Below, piece by piece: positions 17,270-57,270 of a stretch of DNA of 60,036 bases. The DNA comes from Acidobacteriota bacterium. Lineage in GTDB: Bacteria; Acidobacteriota; Aminicenantia; UBA2199. The DNA is taken from assembly GCA_018897435.1 (NCBI GenBank), contig JAHIKI010000049.1, positions 1 through 60,036 on the forward strand, given 5' to 3'. The notes beneath the pieces are model-generated. The model had not been told where the DNA came from. It worked only from the letters and a program-made list of their open reading frames with translations, and did no database searches. A program made the translations under genes and the position numbers. Every line of letters begins with the position of its first letter. The stretch's first letter is position 1.

Positions 17270-18985
17270 ATGGCAATGCGTTTAGGAGATTTTTTACTTA
17301 AGGAAAAAAAGTTAACGGAAGAGAAGCTTCAGCACGCGTTGGAGGTCCAAAAAAAGGAACCGGGAAAGCTCGGCAGTGTTTTGATCCGCCTCGGGCATGT
17401 AACCGAAGAAGACATCGCCCAGGTCTTGAGCAAGCAATTCGGCTACCCGTCGATCAACCTCACCAAGTTCGAGATTGACGAAAAAGTGATCGAACTGATC
17501 AAGCCCGACATCGCCCGCAAGCACGTGGTCATCCCCATTCACCGCATCGGTTCCAACCTGACCCTGGCCATGGCCGATCCCTCCAACCTGTTTGTCCAGG
17601 AGGAGATCCGCTTTACCACCAACCTGCGCATCCAGGCGGTCATCGCCCCCGAATCATCGATCCTGGAGGCCATCGACAAATATTACGGTTCTTCCACCGG
17701 CATCGAAGCCCAGAAGTTCCTTGACGAGATCGAATTGAGCGAGGACTCCACCGTGGAGGTCTTGGAGACCAAAGAAGATGAAGGCTTCATGGATGGGGAC
17801 ATCGACGAGGATGCCCCGGCTATCAAGCTGGTCAACCTGATCTTCAACGATGCCATCATCAAGGGCGCTTCGGATATCCATTTCGAGCCCTACGAAAAAG
17901 AGTTCCGCGTCCGCCTGCGCATCGACGGGATATTGCACGAGTACATGAAACCGCCCATGAACCTGAAAAACAAGGTTTCCTCGAGGCTGAAGATCATCTC
18001 AGGAATGGACATCGCCGAACGGCGCCTGCCCCAGGATGGCCGCATCAAAACCAGGATAGACACCAACACGGTCAAAAAAGTGGTTGATATGCGTGTTTCC
18101 TCGCTGCCCACCATCCACGGCGAAAAGATCGTCATCCGCATCCTGGACAAGGACCAGTTGAAGTTGGACCTGACCCAACTCGGTTTCGAACCCCTGTCCC
18201 TGCAGAAATTCGAAAAAAACATCAAGGAGCCCTGGGGCATCATCCTGGTCACCGGTCCCACCGGTTCGGGCAAGACCAACACCCTTTATTCGGCCGTGGC
18301 CAAACTGAATGACGATGAAGTCAACATCCTGACCGCGGAAAACCCGGTGGAATTCAATATTTTCGGCATCAACCAAGTCAACATCAAGGAGCAGATCGGC
18401 CTGACCTTCCCGGCCGCCCTGCGCACCTTCCTGCGCCAGGATCCCAACATAATCCTGGTGGGCGAGATCCGTGATTTTGAAACCGCCGATATCGCCATCA
18501 AAGCCGCCCTGACCGGCCACCTTGTTCTTTCCACCCTGCATACCAATGATGCGCCGTCCACCCTGGCCCGCCTGATCAATATGGGCATCGAACCTTTCCT
18601 GGTGGCCAGCGCCCTGCGCCTGGTCCAGGCCCAGAGATTGATCCGCCGGCTCTGCAGCAGCTGCAAATCCAGCGGCAAGATCCCGGCCCAGACCCTGATC
18701 GAGATCGGTTTCACCCCAGAAGAAGCCAAGGCCGTCCAGATATTCGAACCCAAAGGCTGTGACAAATGCAGCAACACCGGGTATAAAGGCCGGATCGGCT
18801 TGTTTGAAGTCATGGAACTCGATGATGAGATACGCGAGATGATCATGATCGGGGCTTCGACTTCGGAGTTGCGGCAAAAAGCCAAGGAAAAAGGGATGAT
18901 GACCCTGCGCCAGAGCGGGCTGGAAAAGATCAAGCAGGGGATCACCTCCATCGAAGAAGTTTTAAGGGAAACGACGAGATTGTAA
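17270..18985 (+). CDS. pilB: type IV pilus assembly ATPase PilB (GspE family)
   Basis: 571 aa with an N-terminal T2SSE_N/MshEN-like domain, Walker A GPTGSGKT and tetracysteine CSSC...CDKC. Confidence 0.9.
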   Translation: MAMRLGDFLLKEKKLTEEKLQHALEVQKKEPGKLGSVLIRLGHVTEEDIAQVLSKQFGYPSINLTKFEIDEKVIELIKPDIARKHVVIPIHRIGSNLTLAMADPSNLFVQEEIRFTTNLRIQAVIAPESSILEAIDKYYGSSTGIEAQKFLDEIELSEDSTVEVLETKEDEGFMDGDIDEDAPAIKLVNLIFNDAIIKGASDIHFEPYEKEFRVRLRIDGILHEYMKPPMNLKNKVSSRLKIISGMDIAERRLPQDGRIKTRIDTNTVKKVVDMRVSSLPTIHGEKIVIRILDKDQLKLDLTQLGFEPLSLQKFEKNIKEPWGIILVTGPTGSGKTNTLYSAVAKLNDDEVNILTAENPVEFNIFGINQVNIKEQIGLTFPAALRTFLRQDPNIILVGEIRDFETADIAIKAALTGHLVLSTLHTNDAPSTLARLINMGIEPFLVASALRLVQAQRLIRRLCSSCKSSGKIPAQTLIEIGFTPEEAKAVQIFEPKGCDKCSNTGYKGRIGLFEVMELDDEIREMIMIGASTSELRQKAKEKGMMTLRQSGLEKIKQGITSIEEVLRETTRL

Positions 18986-18995
18986 GGAGAGAAGC

Positions 18996-20144
18996 ATGGC
19001 ATTGCCACTTCCGCAATTGTTGAAGATCATGGTGGACGAAGGCGGTACCGACCTGCACATCACCACCAATTCCCAACCGCTGATCCGTATCCATGGCCTC
19101 TTGAAGAGAATTGAGCATCCGGTGCTTTCTCCGGCCGAAACCAAGCAAATGATATACAGCATTCTCAATGACAACCAGAAATACAAATTCGAAGAGAACT
19201 GGGAACTCGATTTTTCCTTCGGCATCAAGGGGCTGGCTCGTTTCCGAGCCAATGTCTTCATGCAGCGCGGCGCCGTGGCCGGAGCTTTCCGCCGCATACC
19301 CTACGAGATCTGGTCATTTGAAAAACTGGGCCTGCCGTCTATTGTCCCAACCATGACCAACAAGGCCCGCGGTTTGATCCTGGTCACCGGTCCGACCGGT
19401 TCGGGAAAAACCACGACACTGGCCTCCATGATCGACAAGATCAACAAGGAGAACCCAGTGCATATAATCACCATCGAGGACCCCATCGAGTACCTGCATT
19501 CCCACCGCAAGGCCATGGTCAACCAGCGTGAATTGCACGCCGATACCAAAAGCTTTCCCCTGGCGCTGCGTTCGGTTCTGCGCGAGGACCCCGATGTGGT
19601 GCTGATTGGTGAAATGCGCGACCTGGAGACCATCCAGGCCGCCATCACCATCGCCGAGACCGGTCACTTGACCTTCGCCACTCTCCACACCAACTCGGCC
19701 GCTCAGACCATCAACCGCATCATCGACGTCTTTCCTCCTCATCAGCAGGACCAGGTTCGCACCCAGTTGTCGATGAACCTGGAAGGCATCGTCACCCAAG
19801 CCCTGCTGCCAAAAGCCGACGGCCGGGGCCGGGTGCTGGCCATTGAAGTGCTCATCCCGACGCCGGCCATCCGCCACCTGATCCGCGACAACAAGATCCA
19901 CCAGATATACGCCTCCATGCAGATGGGGCAGGAAAAATTCGGCATGATCACTTTCAATCAGTCATTGGCCAACCTGTATTTCAAGCGTGATATTTCGCTT
20001 GAACTGGCCATGAGCGTTTCCCACAATCCTGAGGAACTGCAGGAATTGATCAACCGCGGTCCCACGGCCCTGTCCAGCCAGTTCAAGACAAGCCATGCCG
20101 CCGCGGCCGCCACTTCAGGCGCAAGCAAAGGGCCTTCATTTTAG
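18996..20144 (+). CDS. pilT: twitching motility retraction ATPase PilT
   Basis: 382 aa with Walker A GPTGSGKTTT and PilT signature AIRHLIRDNKIHQI. Confidence 0.9.
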   Translation: MALPLPQLLKIMVDEGGTDLHITTNSQPLIRIHGLLKRIEHPVLSPAETKQMIYSILNDNQKYKFEENWELDFSFGIKGLARFRANVFMQRGAVAGAFRRIPYEIWSFEKLGLPSIVPTMTNKARGLILVTGPTGSGKTTTLASMIDKINKENPVHIITIEDPIEYLHSHRKAMVNQRELHADTKSFPLALRSVLREDPDVVLIGEMRDLETIQAAITIAETGHLTFATLHTNSAAQTINRIIDVFPPHQQDQVRTQLSMNLEGIVTQALLPKADGRGRVLAIEVLIPTPAIRHLIRDNKIHQIYASMQMGQEKFGMITFNQSLANLYFKRDISLELAMSVSHNPEELQELINRGPTALSSQFKTSHAAAAATSGASKGPSF

Positions 20145-20155
20145 GAGGAAAAAAT

Positions 20156-21364
20156 ATGCCAATTTTTAAATACAGAGGTAAAAACAGGATTGGAAGCATT
20201 GTGGAAGGTGAACGTCGCGGCCTGAATTCCAATGAAATCATCACTGCCCTGGAAAAAGAAATGATCCAGGTGTTAAGTATCGAGCGCAAGAAACTTAAAA
20301 TCAATATCCCCTTTGTCGGTGGACGCAAGAGTGTTTCGCTCAAGACCATTGCCGTTTTCAACCGCCAACTTTCGGTCATGTTCAACGCCGGCCTGCCCAT
20401 CACCCAGGCCATTGGCATCCTGGGTAAGCAGCAAAAGGATAAGTTTTTCCAAAGTGTACTGCTTGAGGTCCGCAAGGATGTCGAAGGCGGGGCCAACCTG
20501 TCCAACGCCATGAAAAAGCATCCCAAGGTCTTCAATGAACTGTACACCAGCATGATACAGGCCGGCGAAGCTTCCGGTAATTTGGATACTATCCTGTTGC
20601 GCCTTTCACAATATGTTGAGAACATGAACAAATTGATCGGCAAAGTGAAATCGGCCCTGGCTTACCCGATTGCCGTCCTGGTGATCGCCCTCTTACTGAC
20701 CGGTGTCATTTTATGGAAGGTCGTTCCGGTTTTCACCGACATGTTCGGGCAATTGGGAGCCGAACTTCCCCTGGCGACCCAAATCGTGGTCGGAGCCAGC
20801 AATTTCCTGGTCGGCAATTTCTTCTTTGTCATCATTATCTTCGCCGTGCTCATCTTCGCTTTCCGCTCCTATAACGCCACCTTCAAGGGACGGCGTGTGA
20901 TCGACAACATCAAGTTGAAGATATGGATTTTCGGCGAACTCTTGGTCAAGGTGGCCGTGGCCCGCGTGACCCGCACCCTGGCCACCCTGTTGACTTCGGG
21001 AGTCGAGATCATCGAAAGCATGACCATCACCGCCAAGACGTCGGGCAACTCGATCATCGAAGACGCGGTGCTGAAAAGCCGCTCCCTGGTCCAGGAAGGA
21101 AAACCGTTATGGGAGTCCTGGGAAGAGACCAAGCGTTTCCCCTATATGGTGACCCAGATGGTCGCTGTCGGCGAGCAGACCGGCTCCCTGGCCACCATGC
21201 TCGGTAAAGTGGCCGATTTTTACGATGAAGAGGTAGACCAGGCCGTGACGGCTCTCGTGTCGTTGATGGAACCGATCATGATCCTGTTTCTGGGCGGCTT
21301 AGTCGGAGGCATTATCGTAGCCATGTATCTCCCCTTGTTCGATATCATCGGCAAAGTGGGTTAA
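20156..21364 (+). CDS. pilC: type IV pilus platform protein PilC (T2SS F family)
   Basis: 402 aa with two T2SSF repeats and three TM segments. It follows pilB and pilT. Confidence 0.9.
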   Translation: MPIFKYRGKNRIGSIVEGERRGLNSNEIITALEKEMIQVLSIERKKLKINIPFVGGRKSVSLKTIAVFNRQLSVMFNAGLPITQAIGILGKQQKDKFFQSVLLEVRKDVEGGANLSNAMKKHPKVFNELYTSMIQAGEASGNLDTILLRLSQYVENMNKLIGKVKSALAYPIAVLVIALLLTGVILWKVVPVFTDMFGQLGAELPLATQIVVGASNFLVGNFFFVIIIFAVLIFAFRSYNATFKGRRVIDNIKLKIWIFGELLVKVAVARVTRTLATLLTSGVEIIESMTITAKTSGNSIIEDAVLKSRSLVQEGKPLWESWEETKRFPYMVTQMVAVGEQTGSLATMLGKVADFYDEEVDQAVTALVSLMEPIMILFLGGLVGGIIVAMYLPLFDIIGKVG

Positions 21365-21374
21365 CAAGCGAAAC

Positions 21375-22964
21375 TTGATTGCCGTTGAAGATCAGAATCT
21401 GCATAAGAAATTAATTTTTCTCAATTCCATCCGCATTGCGATTTTGTCGGCCCTGGCCTTGGTTTCGGTCATCATTCTGCTTTTTTTCAACGCCCCTTTT
21501 GCGCTGCTGAGCATCATCATCTCCTTAACCGCGGCCGTCGCGATCAGCATCCTATTTTTTCCCTTGGGAAAATTGCTCAAAACCCGGAAACTGCTTTATG
21601 TCCAGCTGACGTTCGATATCTTGATGATCACCCTACTGGTGTACCTCTCCGGGGGCATCGTCAGTCCGTTTTACTTCCTTTACATCCTGCCTATCATCGT
21701 CGCTTCCATTTTCCTTTCCCGGCGCGATACGCTCATTATCGCCACGGTGTCGTTCATTTCCTTCGGGACGCTCTCCGACTTACTCTTCCTGGAAATCATC
21801 TCTTTTTATCCGAACTTCGCCGTGGGCGATGTCTCTTTGGGAACCTTCATTTACAACCTGCTAATGAGTTTCATCGCCTTTTCCAGCGTCAGTTTTATTT
21901 CTTCCTATTATTTTGAAAGGATAAAAAAGACCGGCCAGCAGCTGAAAAACATCCAGGAAAACCTGCAGGACATGATCCTGCTGAACAATTCGGTCATGGA
22001 AAAAATGGAGAACGGCTTCATCACATCCGACCCCCAGGGGCGGATCGTTTCCTTTAACGCCAAGGCCGCCGCTTTCCTGCGCCTGAAAAAAGGAGGAAAT
22101 ATTTTTGACCTGCTGCTGGCCAAGGATGAATTGCCCCAAATACGGAAGATATGGCAGAGCAACAACTCCTATTATTTTGAAAAAACCCTGCGCGGATTTT
22201 CGCTGGGGATTTCCCTTTCTTCCATTGAAAAAGTGTCGTCTTTCGAGCGCCTGCTCGTATTTCTGATCACCGACCTGAGCGCCATTAAGGAGATTGAAAA
22301 CAAGCTTAAGGAAAAAGAGCACCTGGCCTTGATAGGGGAAATGGCGGCCGGAATCGCCCATGAAATACGCAATCCGTTGACTTCGATCTCCGGCTCGGTG
22401 CAGTTTTTACGCCAGGGACTCACACTGGAGCCCGAATTAAAGAACCTGATGGACATCATCATCAAGGAATCGGACCGCCTTTCGGCTTTCATTGAAGAAT
22501 TCCTGAATTTTTCCAGGCAGTCGCCTCTGGAAATTTCGGAATTTGACTTGGCCGGAGTGGTGGATGACGTGGTGGCCATAATATCACACAACCTGGGTAC
22601 GGTGCGCTTCATTAAAAAATACAATCCCGGGAGCATGGTCCATGCCGATTTCAAGAGGATCAAACAGCTGGTCTGGAACCTGCTGAACAATGCCGTGAAA
22701 GCGCTGCAGGAACACGGCGAGATCGAGATCAATCTGTTTCAGGATGCCAAAGCCGTTTACTTGTCCATCCACGATTTTGGCGTGGGTATGGACCGCAATG
22801 AAGTCGAGAAGATCTTTATGCCTTTCTATTCCAAATTCGCCTTCGGCATTGGCCTGGGCATGAATATCGTTAAAAGGATCGTCGAGGAACATGGGTTCAA
22901 AATGGAGATCAAGTCCGAAAAAAATCTTGGCACCGAGGTAGTGATATGCTTCAACAGGCCGTAA
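21375..22964 (+). CDS. pilS: membrane sensor histidine kinase, PilS-like
   Basis: About six N-terminal TM helices, a PAS-like region, H-box AHEIRNPLTSI and a HATPase domain. Its position matches pilS in Geobacter-type clusters. Confidence 0.7.
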   Translation: MIAVEDQNLHKKLIFLNSIRIAILSALALVSVIILLFFNAPFALLSIIISLTAAVAISILFFPLGKLLKTRKLLYVQLTFDILMITLLVYLSGGIVSPFYFLYILPIIVASIFLSRRDTLIIATVSFISFGTLSDLLFLEIISFYPNFAVGDVSLGTFIYNLLMSFIAFSSVSFISSYYFERIKKTGQQLKNIQENLQDMILLNNSVMEKMENGFITSDPQGRIVSFNAKAAAFLRLKKGGNIFDLLLAKDELPQIRKIWQSNNSYYFEKTLRGFSLGISLSSIEKVSSFERLLVFLITDLSAIKEIENKLKEKEHLALIGEMAAGIAHEIRNPLTSISGSVQFLRQGLTLEPELKNLMDIIIKESDRLSAFIEEFLNFSRQSPLEISEFDLAGVVDDVVAIISHNLGTVRFIKKYNPGSMVHADFKRIKQLVWNLLNNAVKALQEHGEIEINLFQDAKAVYLSIHDFGVGMDRNEVEKIFMPFYSKFAFGIGLGMNIVKRIVEEHGFKMEIKSEKNLGTEVVICFNRP

Positions 22965-24346
22965 ACATACTGCTGGTGGATGACGATCACAGCCTGCGCA
23001 ACATGCTGTCGTTCGTCCTGGGCAAGGAGGGGTACCAGGTGGATGAAGCGGTGAGCGGCATGGACGCGCTGAAGAAGCTGAAAACCCGGAAATACGACCT
23101 GGTCATTTCCGACATCCGCATGCCCGGTCTGAACGGCATCGACCTGCTCAAAAAGATCAAGACCCACGACCAGGAACTGCCGGTGATCATGATCACGGCA
23201 TATGCCGCCACCCACGATGCCATCGAGGCCATGAAGCTCGGCGCCGAAGATTACATCATGAAACCGTTCAACCTGGAAGAGCTGAAGATCATCATCAACA
23301 AATCGCTGCACAAGAAAAGCATCGAAAAAGAGAATATCGAGTTGAAGCAGAAGCTTTCCGACAAGGAAAACTTCGAGAACATCGTGGGTAGCGATCCCAA
23401 GATGGGCAAAATCTTCGAGCTGATCAGCACCGTAGCCCAGACCGACTCCACCGTGCTGATCAGCGGCGAGAGCGGCACGGGCAAGGAACTGATCGCCCGG
23501 GCCATTCACGCCAAGAGTAGTCGCGCCAATCAAAAATTCGTTTCCATCAACTGCGGGGCCCTTCCAGAAAATTTACTGGAAAGCGAATTGTTCGGCCACA
23601 AGAAAGGCGCTTTCACCGATGCCTACCAGGACAAGGAAGGGCTTTTCGAGGCGGCCAGTCTGGGGACGCTGTTTTTGGATGAAATTTCGGAAATGTCGCA
23701 GAAAATGCAGGTCAAGGTTCTGCGCGGAATTCAGGAAAAGGTGATCCGCCGCGTTGGCGGGAACAAAGAAATTGCCGTGGACGTGCGCATCATCACGGCG
23801 ACCAACCGAGACCTGGCGGAAAGCATCGAGAAAGGGGAATTCCGTTCCGACCTCTATTATCGGCTGAATGTGATCTCCATCAAGGTCCCGCCGTTGCGCG
23901 AGCGCAAAGAAGACATTCCCATTTTGATGCAGCATTTTCTGCAGCGCTACAACCAGAAATTCGCCAAGAACATCCAGGGCTTCGATAAAAGGGTATTTGA
24001 ATGCTTTGCCAACTACCGCTGGCCGGGGAACGTTCGTGAATTGGAGAATTTCATTGAGAGGGGCGTCGCCCTGGAGAAAGACGAAGTGATCCGCGCCAGT
24101 TCGCTGCCGGCGGAAGTGATCTACAATATGGACCCCAGCCAAAGCAGCGGAGCGGATTGGCCCATTCTGCTCGACGCCGGGGATTTTGATTTCAATCAGT
24201 ATATCGATAACTTGAGCAAGAGCATCATCATCAAGGCCTTGGAGATGAGCAACGGCAATGTAAAAAAAACAGCGCTGCGGCTGAAGGTTAACTACCGTTC
24301 GCTGCGCTACCTGATCGAGAAATACAATTTGAAGCTTCGTTCCTGA
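22946..24346 (+). CDS. pilR: sigma54-dependent response regulator, PilR-like (NtrC family)
   Basis: Receiver domain (DIRMPGLNG), AAA+ with GESGTGKE and GAFTDA loop, and a C-terminal Fis-type HTH. Confidence 0.85.
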   Translation: MLQQAVNILLVDDDHSLRNMLSFVLGKEGYQVDEAVSGMDALKKLKTRKYDLVISDIRMPGLNGIDLLKKIKTHDQELPVIMITAYAATHDAIEAMKLGAEDYIMKPFNLEELKIIINKSLHKKSIEKENIELKQKLSDKENFENIVGSDPKMGKIFELISTVAQTDSTVLISGESGTGKELIARAIHAKSSRANQKFVSINCGALPENLLESELFGHKKGAFTDAYQDKEGLFEAASLGTLFLDEISEMSQKMQVKVLRGIQEKVIRRVGGNKEIAVDVRIITATNRDLAESIEKGEFRSDLYYRLNVISIKVPPLRERKEDIPILMQHFLQRYNQKFAKNIQGFDKRVFECFANYRWPGNVRELENFIERGVALEKDEVIRASSLPAEVIYNMDPSQSSGADWPILLDAGDFDFNQYIDNLSKSIIIKALEMSNGNVKKTALRLKVNYRSLRYLIEKYNLKLRS

Positions 24347-25984: not shown

Positions 25985-26212
25985 CAAGTTCGATGTTTGA
26001 ACTTGAATGAAAAAAATAGCAATTAAATTCCAAATAACAAATCCCAAATAAATTCCAAGTTCCAAATTCCAATGTCCCAAACGAAGACACTTTCAGGTTA
26101 TCTTTTCTTTGTTTTGGTCATTTGGTTATTGGAATTTGGTGCTTGTTTGTAATTTGGTGCTTGGGATTTGGAATTTTCTTTCTCGTCACGCGTCACTTGT
26201 CACGGAGCTCGC
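25985..26212. repeat. heptad-periodic hairpin element E2 (CCAAATT type plus flanking arms)
   Basis: Left arm AAATTCCAAATAACAAATCCCAAATAAATTCCAAGTTCCAAATTCCAATGTCCCAAAC lies at 26025-26082. Right arm TTTGTTTTGGTCATTTGGTTATTGGAATTTGGTGCTTG...GGGATTTGGAATTTT lies at 26108-26178. The tail is CTCGTCACGCGTCACTTGTCACGGAGCTCG. Confidence 0.8.
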
Positions 26213-26264
26213 TTCATTTTCGGCCTTTCTTTCCCGCCTGTTTTTAGGTATAATAAGGACGAAA

Positions 26265-27602
26265 ATGAAGAAAATACTGATTGTTGACGACGAAAAGAAC
26301 ATCCAGGTTTCGCTGGCCACAGTGCTCGAAGATGAAGGTTACCAGGTCTATTTCGCCAAGGATGGAAAAGAAGGGATCGAAAAATTCAAGAACATCAAGC
26401 CCGACGCGATCTTTCTGGATATCTGGATGCCCGGCATGGATGGTCTGGAGGTCATCAACCGCATCCTGGCTATCGATCCGCTGCAGATCATCATCATGAT
26501 CTCCGGGCATGGTTCGGTGTCGGCGGCGGTTTCGGCCCTGAAGGCCGGCGCCTACGATTTTCTGGAAAAGCCGCTCAGTTTGGACAAGGTGATCTTCGTG
26601 CTTAAGCGCGGCCTGGAATTCCGTCAGGTCCGCGACGAGAACATCAAGCTGAAGACCATACTCGACCAGGAAGACGAATTGGCCGGCAACGATGAAAAAA
26701 AGAGGCTGCTGCGCGAAAGCACGGCCACCCTTGATTTTGAAGCCGCCGACCCGCAGTATCTCCGTAAGCAGCGCACCGTGGCCCTGAGCAATATCATCTA
26801 CGGCATCGGCCTGCATTCGGGCGAGAAAACCGGTATGGTCATCAAGCCTCTGCCGCCGAACAAGGGCATCCGTTTTGAAAACATATCCAAAAAAAACTAC
26901 ATTCCTGCCCGTATCGAATACCTCAATACTACCGGCTACGCTACTTCGATCAAGAAAGACGATCTGGAAGCCCGGACCATCGAACATCTCCTGGCCGTGC
27001 TGCACGCTTTCGGCATCACCAACCTGGCCGTCAAGATCAACAAGGAAGTCCCCATTGATGACGGTTCGGCCATCAATTTCTGCGATTTCATCAAGGAGTG
27101 CGGCATTGTCGACCAGGCCGAAGAAATTCCCGAGATCGTCATTACCCGGCCCCTGCTCATTGGCGAGGAGACCCACGACGGGAAATTCATCAAGATCGAG
27201 CCGGCCGATGTCTTTTCGGTCCGTTATACCTGCATTTACCCCGAACCTCTGGGCCGCCAGAGTTATGAATTCGTCATGCATTCGAGCGAAGATTTTCAGC
27301 GCGAGATCGCCCCGGCCCGCACCTACGGTTTCGTGGACGATTTCAACAAGCTCAGCGACATGGGGCTGGCTGAAGGCGGCCGCATGAACAATTTTATACT
27401 GATCGACAGGGACAGGATCATCAACACCACCCTGCGTTTCCCCGAAGAATTGGCCCGCCACAAGATCCTGGACATCATCGGTGATTTTTACATGTTGGGC
27501 CGGCCGATCCGCGGCAAGATCACCGCCCAGAAAACCGGACATACCGACAACGCCAAGATGGTCAACATGGTCAAGGACACGTTCCTGAAGACCAAGTCCT
27601 AA
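26265..27602 (+). CDS. lpxC: response-regulator receiver domain fused to UDP-3-O-acyl-GlcNAc deacetylase (LpxC)
   Basis: The N-terminal REC has VDDE, IFLDIWMPGMDG, MISGH and EKP. The C-terminal 280 aa are LpxC with GLHSGEK, TIEHLLA (E78/H79), HKILDIIGD (H238/D242/D246) and KTGHTDN (H265). Confidence 0.85.
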   Translation: MKKILIVDDEKNIQVSLATVLEDEGYQVYFAKDGKEGIEKFKNIKPDAIFLDIWMPGMDGLEVINRILAIDPLQIIIMISGHGSVSAAVSALKAGAYDFLEKPLSLDKVIFVLKRGLEFRQVRDENIKLKTILDQEDELAGNDEKKRLLRESTATLDFEAADPQYLRKQRTVALSNIIYGIGLHSGEKTGMVIKPLPPNKGIRFENISKKNYIPARIEYLNTTGYATSIKKDDLEARTIEHLLAVLHAFGITNLAVKINKEVPIDDGSAINFCDFIKECGIVDQAEEIPEIVITRPLLIGEETHDGKFIKIEPADVFSVRYTCIYPEPLGRQSYEFVMHSSEDFQREIAPARTYGFVDDFNKLSDMGLAEGGRMNNFILIDRDRIINTTLRFPEELARHKILDIIGDFYMLGRPIRGKITAQKTGHTDNAKMVNMVKDTFLKTKS

Positions 27603-28824: not shown

Positions 28825-29115
28825 CTAGTCCCACACCCCGCCCAGCTTGTTTAATTCCTCGCCGGTGTATTTCCGGAACAGGATCTCCCATTCGCGCGAA
28901 CCTTCGGGAATATTTTTTTTCTGGGAAATGATCTTTTCTCGGGCCCGGGTTTCGATGTCCTCGAACATTTTCAGTTCGTCCAATATGAAATGGTAGATTT
29001 TAAAGCGGATATTGCCCAGATCATCCGTATAATCTATGTCATCGGTGTTTTGGATGGAATCGACGATCAGCTTGGTCAGGAAATTCACCCGGTTTTTCGA
29101 CAGTTTCAGGCTCAT
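28825..29115 (-). CDS. DUF507 family protein
   Basis: 96 aa, acidic and helical. It is paired in tandem with a second DUF507-like ORF and overlaps it as ATGA. Confidence 0.65.
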   Translation of the reverse strand: MSLKLSKNRVNFLTKLIVDSIQNTDDIDYTDDLGNIRFKIYHFILDELKMFEDIETRAREKIISQKKNIPEGSREWEILFRKYTGEELNKLGGVWD

Positions 29116-29390
29116 AGGACTATGTTCTCCTGCTCGGCCAGCTTGCTTTTGATCAAGCGGAACATTTCATAGTAATCGATGTTGGAGTTGCGGATCTCGG
29201 TCAGCTTTTCTTTAAGGATATCCTTGACTTTTTCGTCAAGCAAATCTTCTTTTTCCAACTCCTTGGTGATGATATTTTGCACATCACAGACGGTTTTTTC
29301 CCGGCTTTCGACCATGAGCAGGTTTTCGCTGAGCAGTCCCTTGACAATTCGGAATGCCAAGTGCTCGATTTGCTGCTTATTTAATCTCAT
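29112..29390 (-). CDS. DUF507 family protein (paralog)
   Basis: 92 aa from MRLNKQQIEHLAFRIVKGL. Same size and composition class as the downstream gene. Confidence 0.65.
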   Translation of the reverse strand: MRLNKQQIEHLAFRIVKGLLSENLLMVESREKTVCDVQNIITKELEKEDLLDEKVKDILKEKLTEIRNSNIDYYEMFRLIKSKLAEQENIVL

Positions 29391-29552
29391 TGATAAATAA
29401 TATAACAAATTTTGTCATTTAAATCAACCCTTGTTTCAGGGCGAACACGGCGTTTCGGGAAAATTCACTCCGTGACTGCCGGGGTTTTCGCCTCCGCCAG
29501 GCGTTATCTGTGGCAAAAATTTGTTTTCAGCACAGTTTTTTTCTTAAAAATC

Positions 29553-33184: not shown

Positions 33185-33520
33185 CGGTATAAGGTTTACG
33201 GTAGACGGTTTACGGTAAGAAAAGGCAAAGCACCAAGCTCCAAGCACCAAATAACAACTAAATTCCAAGCTCCAAATTCCAATGTCCTAAACAAAGAAGT
33301 GAATGGGTAGAAGGGTTAATGAGTTGAAGGGTTAAGAAAACCGAAATCGTTTGCTGTCATTGCCGTTGTCCCATCAACTCATCAACATTTGATTGCTCTC
33401 TTTGTTTTGGTCATTTGGATATTGGAATTTTGTGCTTGTTTTTGATTTGATGCTTGGGATATGGAATTTTTCTTTAGTTAACCGTCAAACGTACACCGTC
33501 AACCGTCTGCCGAGCTCGTT
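33185..33520. repeat. compound hairpin element E5: three heptad-periodic hairpins nested in one another
   Basis: Outer arms are GGTTTAC GGTAGAC GGTTTAC GG (33196-33218) and CCGTCAAACGTACACCGTCAACCGTC. Middle arms are CCAAGCT/CCAAATT type (33226-33296 and 33397-33468). Inner arms are GGGTAGA AGGGTTA ATGAGTT GAAGGGT (33306-33336) and CCCATCAACTCATCAAC. It ends with GAGCTCG. Confidence 0.8.
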
Positions 33521-46833: not shown

Positions 46834-46863
46834 TTGCAATATCGCTCCCAATCGATATATAAT
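46834..46863 (+). promoter_or_regulatory. sigma70-type promoter TTGCAA-18-TATAAT placed for a leaderless transcript
   Basis: TTGCAA at 46834-46839 and TATAAT at 46858-46863. The ATG at 46870 follows 6 nt after the -10. Confidence 0.6.
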
Positions 46864-46869
46864 CTCCCT

Positions 46870-48915
46870 ATGCTAAAAAAGCTTCACAAACTCAACCTGG
46901 CCATTATCCTGTCGGCAGTAGCCGCCATTCTGGCTTACTTCTTTTTTCAGCCTGGCACTTTCCAGTTCTTCCTGTTGCTGACCATAATTCTCGCCTTTGT
47001 CCGCCTGCTGGGCATCATCCGCCGCCGCCTGCTCTGGAAGATCCGCAACCGGCTGATCATCTCTTCGCTGTTTTTCATCGTCACCCCCATCGTACTGATC
47101 ACGGTCTTTTTCTACCTGATCATCAACCTCATCATCACCCAGTACAACACGGCCATCTTCGAAAACCTGATGGTCAACGAGATCCGCTCCTTTGAAGAAA
47201 GCAGCGGCTATTACCTCGGCCTAGCCGACGATGTAAGGATCAAGCTCGAGGTGCAGCGTTTCAAAAACCGCAAGCCGCGTTTCCTGAACCTGGCTTTTTT
47301 CAAGGAGACGGACGGGCGCTACCAGGCGTTTTTTACCTATCCCGGGGACTTGCCCCTCGAGACATTCGATGCCAACGGCCCGCTGGCCAAGTTCCAAGCC
47401 GGCTATTTCAAGGTTGGCGGCGTTCTCTATCACGGCGTACATCAGCAGCGCGGCGGCTACGCGGCGCTGATTTTCGAGACCCTGAACCAGGAGTTTTTCG
47501 ACGCCATGCCGCCCATCGGCGACTTCAAGGTGCTGTTCATGGGTGCAGGCGGCAATACGCTCTCCGCCTCCTCGCAGGAGATGTCGGAGCGCCTCAACGA
47601 CAAGGATTTCGTCGGTTTCGAAAAATACCATTTCCCTTTTCCCTTCACCTTCCGCTTCTGGGATTTCGATGATCTGAAGAACGGGCAGCCCACCCTCAAG
47701 TTCAACATGTTCCTGCTGATCAACGACTATTCGAAGATCATGCAGAAACTGAAAACCTCTGACCGCGCCGCCATGCTGCAGGACCAGGCAAAGGTACTGG
47801 AAAAGGAGATCAGCCGCGGCGGCGACCAGGCTGCGCTCATGAGCAAAAGCCAGCAGTTGGACGAATTGAAAAAAGAACTTCAGGTGCTGCAAAAACGCGA
47901 CAGCCAGAGCTCGGTCTTTCCCATCTCGGTGCTGGTGCGTTTCATGCTCGGCCTGTTCGGCTTTTTCATTGTTATCTCCTTTTTCATCGGCTTGCGCATG
48001 GTGCGCGTCATCACCCGCGCCGTCAACGAGCTGACCAAGGGCACCGAAAAGATCCGCCGCGGTGATTTTTCCTACCGCATCCGCATCAAGTCGCAAGAGC
48101 AGATGCATTTCCTGGCCGAATCGTTCAATGACATGGCCTCCGGCATCGGCCGCCTGCTGAGCGAGGAAAAGGAAAAGCAGCGCTTGCAAGAGGAGCTGCG
48201 CATCGCCCGCGGTATCCAGCTGAAGCTGCTGCCCGCCGACCATTTCGCATGCCCGGAGTTTAACATCGCCGCGGTCAACATCCCGGCCACGGAGATCGCC
48301 GGCGATTATTTCGATTACTTTCACCGCCCCGGTAAATTCCTTTCGGTCCTGGTGGCCGACGTCTCGGGCAAGGGTGCCCAGGCTGCATTCTACATGGCCG
48401 AGCTGAAGGGCATCATGAACTGCCTGCAGAAGACCGGCCAGGAGCCGGCGGCCATCCTCAGCGAATGCAACGTCATCCTGCAGAGTTCTTTTGAGAAGGT
48501 CACCTTCATCACCATCAACCTGGTCCGTTTTGACCTGCAGAACAAGAACCTGATCTTTTCCCGGTCCGGCCACACGCCGGCCCTGTTTTACCAGAGCGAC
48601 AAGCAGGCCTGCCTGGAGCTGTCGCCGCACGGCATGGCCCTGGGGCTGAACAATTTCAGCCAGGAGGGCATCGAAGAGCTGCGTCTGCCATATCAAAGAG
48701 GCGATATCCTGTTCTTCTTTTCCGACGGTCTTTCCGAGATCATGAACCAGGAAGAGCAAATACTGGGCGTCGCCGAGTTGAAAAACATGCTGGTCGGCTA
48801 CGCCGCCCTTTCGGCGCTGGAGATCAAGGAGAAGATCCTGGCCCGGGCCATCGCTTTCGCCGCCGGCCAGGCCAACGCCGACGACCTGACCTTCGTGGTG
48901 ATGAAGGTTCGTTGA
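46870..48915 (+). CDS. membrane-bound PP2C-type phosphatase (HAMP + SpoIIE domains)
   Basis: N-terminal TM helices, a large extracytoplasmic region and a HAMP domain (LRMVRVITRAVNELTKGTEKIRRGD). The SpoIIE/PP2C domain has GDYFDY, DVSGKG and DGLSE. Confidence 0.85.
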   Translation: MLKKLHKLNLAIILSAVAAILAYFFFQPGTFQFFLLLTIILAFVRLLGIIRRRLLWKIRNRLIISSLFFIVTPIVLITVFFYLIINLIITQYNTAIFENLMVNEIRSFEESSGYYLGLADDVRIKLEVQRFKNRKPRFLNLAFFKETDGRYQAFFTYPGDLPLETFDANGPLAKFQAGYFKVGGVLYHGVHQQRGGYAALIFETLNQEFFDAMPPIGDFKVLFMGAGGNTLSASSQEMSERLNDKDFVGFEKYHFPFPFTFRFWDFDDLKNGQPTLKFNMFLLINDYSKIMQKLKTSDRAAMLQDQAKVLEKEISRGGDQAALMSKSQQLDELKKELQVLQKRDSQSSVFPISVLVRFMLGLFGFFIVISFFIGLRMVRVITRAVNELTKGTEKIRRGDFSYRIRIKSQEQMHFLAESFNDMASGIGRLLSEEKEKQRLQEELRIARGIQLKLLPADHFACPEFNIAAVNIPATEIAGDYFDYFHRPGKFLSVLVADVSGKGAQAAFYMAELKGIMNCLQKTGQEPAAILSECNVILQSSFEKVTFITINLVRFDLQNKNLIFSRSGHTPALFYQSDKQACLELSPHGMALGLNNFSQEGIEELRLPYQRGDILFFFSDGLSEIMNQEEQILGVAELKNMLVGYAALSALEIKEKILARAIAFAAGQANADDLTFVVMKVR

Positions 48916-56393: not shown

Positions 56394-56663
56394 ATGCACA
56401 ATCCTGAAATAACCAAATTCATCCACGAACACAGCCAGTATTTCTGGTATACCCCGGAGACTGAAAAGGAAAACATCAGCCCGGAATTGCTGCTGGAAAC
56501 CATATTGAATGATGGCGACATGGATGCCGTTCGCGAACTTTTCAAGGTCATGGGCATAAAAAACGCGGCCAGCGTGTTTTTCAGTGCTGCCGGCAGAAAA
56601 AAAATGAATTACTATCCCGAAATTTATCATTTCTTTTCACTGCTTTTCAAACGCCATGCATAA
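56394..56663 (+). CDS. small protein, putative partner (antitoxin?) of the downstream nucleotidyltransferase
   Basis: 89 aa. It overlaps the downstream AbiEii-like gene by 8 nt and has its own consensus promoter. I recognise no family. Confidence 0.5.
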   Translation: MHNPEITKFIHEHSQYFWYTPETEKENISPELLLETILNDGDMDAVRELFKVMGIKNAASVFFSAAGRKKMNYYPEIYHFFSLLFKRHA

Positions 56664-57270
56664 GGAAATCCTCAACACCGATCAGCTTGAGCTACTGGCG
56701 CTGGTGAGGAATTTTAAGCCCGAATTTTTCCTGGTGGGCGGCACGGCCATAGCCCTTCATATCGGTCACCGCCGTTCCAATGATTTCGATCTTTTTAAAA
56801 ACGGCGAATTGCGCCACAAAAAAATACTCGATACCGTAAAAACACACGGATTTCCGGTTCAGGTCACCCGCCGGGTAAGCGAACAGTTGAACCTGACAAT
56901 TAGTGGAGTGAAATTCACGTTTTTCGATTATCCTTTTCCCATAAAACCTGTTTGCGTGTTTGAAAACGTGATCGAACTTCCCGATATTTTGACTTTGGCG
57001 GCGATGAAGGCCTATGCTTTGAGCCGGCGTTCCAAGTGGAAGGATTACGTCGATCTGTATTTTATCATCAGGCACCATCATTCAATCGCAGAGATTTCCG
57101 CCAAAGCCGGCGCTATTTTCGGCGAACTTTTCTCGGAAAAAATGTTCCGGGCCCAATTGAGCTTTTTCGAAGACATCGACTTTACCGAGCCTTTGGAATA
57201 TTTGCCGCCCGCTGTTCCGGAAACTGTAATAAGGGAGTTCCTTGTCGAAAGGGCCACGGCGGTGATTTAG
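56656..57270 (+). CDS. nucleotidyltransferase, AbiEii/AbiGii toxin family (type IV TA-like)
   Basis: 204 aa. GGTAIALHIGHRRSNDFDLF matches the family's G-G-T-A...R.S.D.D nucleotidyltransferase core. Confidence 0.7.
   Translation: MHKEILNTDQLELLALVRNFKPEFFLVGGTAIALHIGHRRSNDFDLFKNGELRHKKILDTVKTHGFPVQVTRRVSEQLNLTISGVKFTFFDYPFPIKPVCVFENVIELPDILTLAAMKAYALSRRSKWKDYVDLYFIIRHHHSIAEISAKAGAIFGELFSEKMFRAQLSFFEDIDFTEPLEYLPPAVPETVIREFLVERATAVI

Follow-up and report, generated by a model that had tools for sequence, protein, structure and literature searches.

LpxC, the UDP-3-O-acyl-GlcNAc deacetylase, commits the cell to lipid A and governs how fast lipid A is made; the enzyme is also a major target of antibiotics. 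LpxC is known to be controlled by FtsH/LapB/YejM proteolysis, by MurA binding in Pseudomonas, by Lon and, at the level of transcription, by NtrYX and ChvGI. A covalently attached signalling domain, such as the fusion described here would provide, is not among these controls, and the control of LpxC outside the Enterobacteria is an open question (PMC12444477). The NtrYX system affects the cell envelope and the levels of lpxC transcripts (PMC7240162), and in Rhodobacter and Caulobacter it acts on lpxC transcription. A sigma54-dependent response regulator of Desulfovibrio vulgaris, DVU2934, has lpxC as its single mapped target, and in Syntrophobacter lpxC adjoins an operon orthologous to that of DVU2934 (PMC3333781). 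Putative sigma54 promoters before lpxC have also been noted in Leptospira. Here, a gene encoding an LpxC with an N-terminal receiver domain (REC) was analysed in a 60,036-nt stretch of DNA from an Acidobacteriota bacterium of the class Aminicenantia (assembly GCA_018897435.1, contig JAHIKI010000049.1, positions 1 to 60,036 of the forward strand), the whole of which is called the window below. The receiver resembles the remains of an NtrY/NtrX-type regulator linked to lpxC, and this points to a direct control of outer-membrane synthesis by phosphorylation that has so far gone undescribed.

The gene, named REC-lpxC here (Table 1), lies in a reading frame that is uninterrupted from 26109 to 27602 on the plus strand. 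The likely start is the ATG at 26265 (MKKILIVDD), located 5 nt past an AAGGA at 26255-26259, and homologues share both the start site and the length of the window protein. A receiver (Pfam Response_reg, residues 4-110, E 1.1e-28) is followed by a linker and a full-length LpxC domain (Pfam LpxC, residues 169-436, profile positions 1-266 of 268, E 7.6e-77, 258.9 bits against a cut-off of 27). An original prediction made from the letters of the window had proposed one open reading frame (ORF) joining a competent-looking receiver to a full LpxC, and Pfam, TIGR00325 and the continuous ORF agree on this arrangement; the linker, then put at about 50 amino acids (aa), measured about 47 aa. Among 5.8 billion proteins searched, at least 120 clusters matched at 63-98% identity, all full-length and each with both Pfam domains; they come from NCBI, JGI, ENA and Logan assemblies and lie on contigs of up to 9.1 Mb. 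The named clusters in that search were 'Candidatus Aminicenantes' or Acidobacteriota. The fusion is also present in GTDB genomes of several phyla, and the closest match to the window protein among the best 80 loci of a scan of GTDB species genomes was a Candidatus Aminicenantes metagenome-assembled genome (MAG) at 86%. A frameshift, a lost stop codon or an assembly join of two separate genes, the artefacts that could have undone the prediction, may be dismissed with near certainty, since the same ORF recurs on independent contigs across phyla and in at least 120 independent clusters.

The LpxC part of the protein looks catalytically competent. It reached 233 bits with the NCBIfam lpxC equivalog TIGR00325 (cut-off 187), and its best solved relative in the PDB was the LpxC of Aquifex aeolicus (E 1.2e-47). 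Nine residues, H184, E240, H241, T353, H399, K400, D403, D407 and H426, were invariant in an alignment of 89 Aminicenantes homologues (63-98% identity), and the zinc ligands and catalytic residues named by the original prediction were all present among them. We take these nine to be the counterparts of H19, E78, H79, T191, H238, K239, D242, D246 and H265 of the Escherichia coli enzyme, in which His79, His238 and Asp242 are the zinc ligands and Glu78 and His265 the catalytic residues. In a set of 35 short fused ORFs drawn from several phyla the same residues recur, except at the H19 and T191 positions of one divergent group. This group (loci L036, L040, L042 and L048; 34-37% identity to the window protein) has Leu in place of H19 and Ser in place of T191. 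One of its members is the cultured Desulfopila sp. IMCC35006, which could serve as an experimental handle or could carry a specialised paralogue. The AlphaFold monomer had a mean predicted local distance difference test score (pLDDT) of 84.7, with values mostly of 84-97 over the LpxC domain, and its LpxC part, which has the two-domain LpxC fold, was superimposed on Aquifex LpxC with a template-modelling (TM) score of 0.91-0.92 and a root-mean-square deviation of about 2 Å (Foldseek).

The receiver was equally well conserved. The acidic pair D8 and D9, the phospho-acceptor D52, S80 and K102, all of which the original prediction had recognised, were invariant in the 89 homologues and in 35/35 of the short fused ORFs. 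The profile matches, the LpxC fold and the invariant residues show that the two domains are intact and evolve under purifying selection. Among receiver-type NCBIfam models the best match was NtrX (139 bits, residues 1-152), and the match to the solved NtrX structure 5m7n in the PDB spanned residues 3-151. Receiver and linker together (residues 1-144) were 44% identical to an NtrX-like regulator linked to lpxC in locus L053, and the identity to the window's own PilR was 35%. By sequence, the receiver and linker are of the NtrX type. The AlphaFold model displayed an unbroken helix over residues 106-139, which extends alpha5 of the receiver into the linker, and a pLDDT below 50 over residues 138-152. 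Within the linker the motif 'ENxxLK' (E125, N126, L129) was conserved in the 89-homologue alignment and the remainder was variable. Neither a Sigma54_activat nor an HTH_8 match was found in the window protein by Pfam. Because the AAA+ and helix-turn-helix (HTH) domains are absent, the protein cannot act as a transcription factor and is not to be counted as an NtrC/NtrX-family regulator, though it seems to be derived from one. It belongs to the LpxC family, and its receiver domain is genuine.

A search of 1.84 billion representatives placed the fusion in a graded series of architectures. The LpxC domains closest to that of the window were those of other fusions and not of stand-alone enzymes. 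Domain mapping and Pfam scans of the best 150 representatives at 50% identity gave 42 REC-LpxC proteins (the short form), 15 proteins of about 680-740 aa with the order REC-AAA+(Sigma54_activat)-(HTH_8)-LpxC (the long form), 2 REC-HTH_8-LpxC and 61 stand-alone LpxC; another 7, possibly truncated at the N-terminus, had AAA+ and/or HTH_8 before LpxC and no REC match. At least 119 clusters of the long form were detected, labelled Deltaproteobacteria, Desulfobacterota or Thermodesulfobacteriota, and the JGI annotation of long forms often reads 'NtrX'. Among the best 80 GTDB loci, the short form occurred in Aminicenantes, Thermoanaerobaculia, Holophagae and Terriglobia, and further in Binatia, Syntrophobacter(aceae), 'Deltaproteobacteria' MAGs, Desulfocapsaceae and Desulfopila sp. 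IMCC35006; the long forms were from Thermodesulfobacteriota, Desulfomonile and Nitrospinota. A rough neighbour-joining (NJ) tree of LpxC domains set the fused group apart from 49 stand-alone enzymes, with short forms in several places.

The AAA+ domain of 113 long forms was compared with that of the canonical PilR in the window. Walker A was kept (Lys in 112/113), the Walker B Glu was found in none of the 113, being mostly Ala or Ser, GAFTGA was absent, both arginine fingers were lost and the sensor II Arg was replaced by Lys in 113/113. HTH_8 was retained. The AAA+ domain of the long forms is thus an NtrX-like domain without the residues for hydrolysis and sigma54 contact, which may still bind nucleotide. 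In the window protein, the linker stretch 'DELAGNDE' aligned with the 'LIGxS' start of the AAA+ domain of the long forms and of NtrC-type regulators, the match reaching residue ~144 (BLASTP, MAFFT); only about 10 residues of the window protein align with the AAA+ domain start, and a reading of this stretch as an AAA+ remnant is suggestive only.

An NtrY-type kinase gene was located directly upstream of the fused gene, on the same strand and at a distance of 11-96 nt, in nine short fused loci and one long (ORF and domain mapping, Pfam). The kinases are of 740-790 aa and consist of NtrY_N, HAMP, PAS, HisKA and HATPase_c. The phosphorelay input into LpxC suggested by the original prediction gains comparative support from these ten loci. 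Stand-alone lpxC genes revealed a related arrangement: in six loci (L051, L053, L056, L058, L066 and L070) from Acidobacteria, Thermoanaerobaculia, Rokubacteria, Deltaproteobacteria and Thermodesulfobacteriota the gene order was lpxC-DUF4390-ntrY, and a REC-Sigma54_activat-HTH_8 (ntrX-like) gene came next in 5/6, L058 ending before it. A seventh unfused locus (L049, Methylomirabilota) was cut at the contig end. The sequences of four regulators were read; GAFTGA and Walker B were canonical in those of L051, L053 and L056, and GAFTGA was degenerate in that of L066. DUF4390 was recently proposed, as PlrP, to be a periplasmic third component of NtrYX/PlrSR systems (PMC13001219).

A sigma54-type -24/-12 element was searched for as TGGCAC-N5-TTGC with at most one mismatch, for which the background is 2.4e-5 per nt. 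The box was present 19-64 nt upstream of lpxC in 4/6 of the complete unfused operons (P ~1e-7) and, within 370 nt, upstream of lpxC in 11/34 of the other stand-alone loci (among L045-L086). Only 1/43 of the fused genes had it, and the same search found none before REC-lpxC of the window. The boxes of the other stand-alone loci suggest that sigma54-dependent transcription of lpxC is widespread in these phyla.

Taken together, the graded architectures, the NtrY genes upstream of fused genes and the unfused lpxC-DUF4390-ntrY-ntrX operons make it most likely that the receiver goes back to an NtrX-like protein that regulated lpxC transcription and was later joined to LpxC, its target. The history of the fusion is most simply pictured as follows, running from unfused through long to short. 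The ancestral state would have been an lpxC-DUF4390-ntrY-ntrX operon behind a sigma54-type promoter, driven by an NtrX-like activator. A tandem duplication of the operon would put ntrX directly before a second lpxC, and fusion of the regulator to the enzyme would give ntrY followed by REC-AAA+-HTH_8-LpxC. The fused ATPase would then have lost its sigma54-contact and hydrolysis residues, the ATPase and DNA-binding functions decaying once control could act on the LpxC protein, and the AAA+ and HTH parts would have been deleted afterwards, probably more than once, to leave REC-LpxC. The window protein would represent the end state, the kinase gene having moved away in its lineage.

Phosphorylation would now act on LpxC post-translationally. 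A histidine kinase, NtrY-like where it is adjacent and unlinked in the Aminicenantes lineage of the window, would phosphorylate D52, and a change at the alpha4-beta5-alpha5 face and in the helix joining alpha5 to the linker would alter the attached LpxC in its oligomeric or conformational state. The helix extended from alpha5 resembles the coiled-coil linkers of NtrC1 and DctD-type regulators, in which receiver dimers hold the output domain off, and control through oligomeric or conformational state is favoured by this likeness. A hint on the sign of the effect comes only from Rhodobacter, where lpxC transcripts and lipopolysaccharide increase when NtrYX is lost (PMC7240162). For the account as a whole, an NtrX-derived receiver whose phosphorylation acts on LpxC through its oligomeric or conformational state, we estimate a probability of about 0.6. 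Its wider extension is put forward more tentatively, at somewhat less than even odds: a dedicated envelope-sensing circuit, in which an NtrY-type kinase phosphorylates LpxC itself and which arose from a sigma54 activator fused to its target, may replace FtsH/LapB or MurA control in Aminicenantes and other Acidobacteriota.

Several observations weigh against this account. No kinase is linked to REC-lpxC in the window, and the same is true of the majority of loci from Aminicenantes and Thermoanaerobaculia and of almost all of 73 metagenome loci. The NJ tree does not order the short and long forms. The AAA+ motif of the linker was not conserved among other Aminicenantes in the 89-homologue alignment and is therefore counted as a hint only. 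Finally, the AlphaFold model of the receiver and LpxC that had been suggested with the original prediction delivered two good domains but no confident interface; the linker of the monomer was disordered, the predicted TM score (pTM) was 0.68 and no confident interdomain packing was seen, so the model offers no structural clue to the mechanism or to its sign.

Another reading is that the fused gene is an accessory paralogue, a conditional second enzyme or a deacetylase of shifted substrate in a genome that also has a stand-alone lpxC; the divergent Desulfopila sp. IMCC35006 group, with its H19 to Leu and T191 to Ser changes, could mark such a paralogue. We regard this as unlikely. The window protein scores above the lpxC equivalog cut-off and its catalytic residues are invariant, and no second LpxC was found in the 60-kb window, where tblastn of the LpxC domain detected the gene itself only. 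No intact second lpxC was present within ±6 kb in about 160-170 related loci, the sole extra match being a fragment in a Thermoanaerobaculia MAG (L026, 4416-4694). At 38% identity this fragment resembles LpxC over its C-terminal third only; an intact REC-lpxC is found about 1 kb upstream of it, and the fragment may be a duplication relic. No genome occurred twice among the best 80 LpxC loci of the GTDB scan, and REC-lpxC stands beside rplM-rpsI-tsf in relatives down to 76% identity. In the unfused relatives, moreover, lpxC sits inside the ntrYX operon, which fits replacement and not addition. These indirect signs (the equivalog score, the invariant catalytic residues, the stable rplM-rpsI-tsf position and the lack of any second copy seen) favour the fused gene as the housekeeping lpxC.

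The main alternative to an action on oligomeric or conformational state is regulated proteolysis, in which the receiver would be a phosphorylation-dependent degron or adaptor-docking module, following the logic of RssB or CpdR, that sets the abundance of LpxC and not its catalytic rate and replaces FtsH/LapB. LpxC proteolysis is the rule in E. coli, and Lon has been implicated in some alphaproteobacteria (PMC12444477). The window protein ends 9 residues past the LpxC domain and is thus without a long C-terminal tail like the FtsH degron of E. coli. Proteases are also found near some fused genes: the start of REC-lpxC overlaps the stop of a gene for a 991-aa ClpB-like AAA+ protein in a 9.1-Mb Aminicenantes genome in the 66-69% identity range (CP070627.1; L001, 7026-11314), and lon, clpX and clpP are located 3-8 kb downstream of the long form in L002. 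The protease neighbourhood is not conserved, however, no adaptor or degron motif was identified, and an NtrC-type alpha5-linker helix is better known, from NtrC1 and DctD, for control of oligomeric state; this alternative is judged somewhat less probable still than an accessory paralogue. The idea that the receiver is kept for dimerisation or scaffolding only and receives no kinase signal suits the orphan position of most fused loci, without an adjacent kinase, but it is very improbable against the invariant D8, D9, D52, S80 and K102, of which pseudo-receivers usually lose some, and against the NtrY kinase gene directly before ten fused genes.

The features of the window that bear on the fusion are listed in Table 1.

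Table 1. Positions of REC-lpxC, its parts, its leader and the upstream type IV pilus genes in the window.
Feature	Position (nt)	Strand	Remarks
pilB	17270-18985		Type IV pilus cluster, upstream
pilT	18996-20144		Type IV pilus cluster
pilC	20156-21364		Type IV pilus cluster
PilS-like kinase	21375-22964		Type IV pilus cluster; nearest kinase, 3.3 kb upstream of REC-lpxC
PilR-like REC-sigma54-HTH regulator	22946-24346		Type IV pilus cluster
Leader hairpin	26212..26270	+	Predicted stem, 26212-26227 pairing with 26255-26270; buries Shine-Dalgarno (26255-26259) and AUG (26265)
REC-LpxC gene	26265..27602	+	445 aa + stop; continuous ORF, Pfam Response_reg + LpxC, TIGR00325
Receiver domain, residues 1-119	26265..26621	+	Pfam; D8/D9 acidic pocket, phospho-acceptor D52 (26418-26420), S80, K102
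Linker, residues 120-166 (~47 aa)	26622..26762	+	Helix alpha5 extension, then disordered stretch (AlphaFold)
LpxC domain, residues 167-445	26763..27599	+	Zinc ligands H241 (26985-26987), H399 (27459-27461), D403 (27471-27473); catalytic E240, H426

Between PilR and REC-lpxC lie a gene for an outer-membrane beta-barrel protein on the plus strand and then VanZ and DUF6677 on the minus strand. Downstream of REC-lpxC follow an HhH-GPD glycosylase, two DUF507 ORFs, rplM, rpsI, tsf and frr, and no other lipid A gene was found in the window. The PilS-like kinase was considered as the cognate kinase and rejected, as its gene overlaps that of PilR and the two pair inside the pilus cluster. Adjacency of PilS-PilR to REC-lpxC was seen only in relatives of at least 86-87% identity and was absent at 76%, where only DUF6677 and the ribosomal-protein neighbourhood persist; relatives of 66-69% identity displayed a different gene context again. 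Because the link to PilS-PilR is limited to close relatives and the context varies, the statement of the original prediction that no cognate kinase is adjacent holds for the lineage of the window, and for the window itself it is correct in a strict reading. One Aminicenantes relative of 69% identity (L006, 3591-5504, minus strand) has a divergently transcribed gene for a soluble GAF-GAF-HisKA-HATPase_c kinase directly upstream of REC-lpxC; the kinase is a candidate partner, for which the window has no equivalent.

The leader of REC-lpxC may form a hairpin with 16-nt arms of 94% complementarity (minimum free energy z-score -2.9) and an invariant TATAAT (26249-26254) in its loop. Six close relatives preserve it through compensatory changes, with C-G, U-A and G-C pairs at one position. 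The stem would either serve translational control or belong to a near-leaderless promoter. Rfam gave only sub-threshold chance matches to microRNA families in the leader region. Long imperfect palindromes built of AAATTCCAA / TTGGAATTT units were found in two intergenic regions, 26018-26183 and 33260-33430. The units occur in 8 exact copies against 1.5 expected, and the palindromes resemble a dispersed hairpin element similar to repetitive extragenic palindromic (REP) sequences or miniature inverted-repeat transposable elements (MITEs).

Three further loci of the window were recorded. The DUF507 sequence at 28825-29408 (minus strand) consists of two adjacent overlapping ORFs that match the profile halves 1-93 and 93-181, and as the split also occurs in the relative of 76% identity (L003) it looks like a naturally split gene and not an error. 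A HAMP-SpoIIE (PP2C) membrane phosphatase at 46834-48915 and an AbiEii-type nucleotidyltransferase toxin gene at 56656-57270 both appear unrelated to the fusion.

A receiver on LpxC would, if the account is correct, be a new and very direct mode of control, and a biosynthetic enzyme would join the small number of outputs listed for response regulators. Within one family, the architectures fit a switch from transcriptional to post-translational control by fusion of a regulator to its target, and they lend independent genomic support to the debated connection of NtrYX with the cell envelope. The two-gene operons of ntrY and REC-lpxC would be a simple system for reconstitution in vitro. A search of the literature for LpxC with a receiver, as a response-regulator output or with NtrX returned only transcriptional links and no description of a fusion, and the words 'receiver' and 'fusion' are absent from a 2025 review of lipid A regulation (PMC12444477). 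The original prediction knew of no characterised fusion of this kind, and the searched literature agrees; it had also held that the architecture would lose its novelty if already common and characterised, and of these two only the first turned out to apply. With at least 60 clusters at 50% identity the REC-LpxC architecture is common in databases, yet as far as found it is undescribed and uncharacterised in the literature searched.

Compared with the LpxC of E. coli, Pseudomonas aeruginosa and A. aeolicus, the window protein has the same full-length domain, fold, zinc ligands and catalytic residues; it differs from them by its N-terminal receiver and linker and by the absence of a long C-terminal tail. 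LpxC-FabZ (NF009667 / PRK13188) is also a natural LpxC fusion, but its partner is a metabolic enzyme at the C-terminus, whereas here a signalling receiver is attached N-terminally. The window protein scored 190 bits with that family against a cut-off of 465, and the LpxC-FabZ examples among the representatives had an LpxC with a C-terminal extension of about 150-175 aa. Attachment of a receiver to an enzyme output is shared with CheB, the GGDEF proteins PleD and WspR, the HD-GYP protein RpfG and the RsbU-type PP2C proteins; unlike these outputs, LpxC is a biosynthetic enzyme of an essential pathway and not an enzyme of signalling or adaptation. DVU2934 is a regulator dedicated to lpxC and in this matches the unfused operons described here, a likeness of function and gene order, although it is a separate protein that acts on the lpxC promoter. 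The NtrY/NtrX (PlrS/PlrR) systems share with the fusion family the NtrX-type receiver and linker, the adjacency of NtrY in ten fused loci and the operons with DUF4390 (PlrP) in unfused relatives; they differ in that the link of the window receiver to LpxC is physical and not transcriptional.

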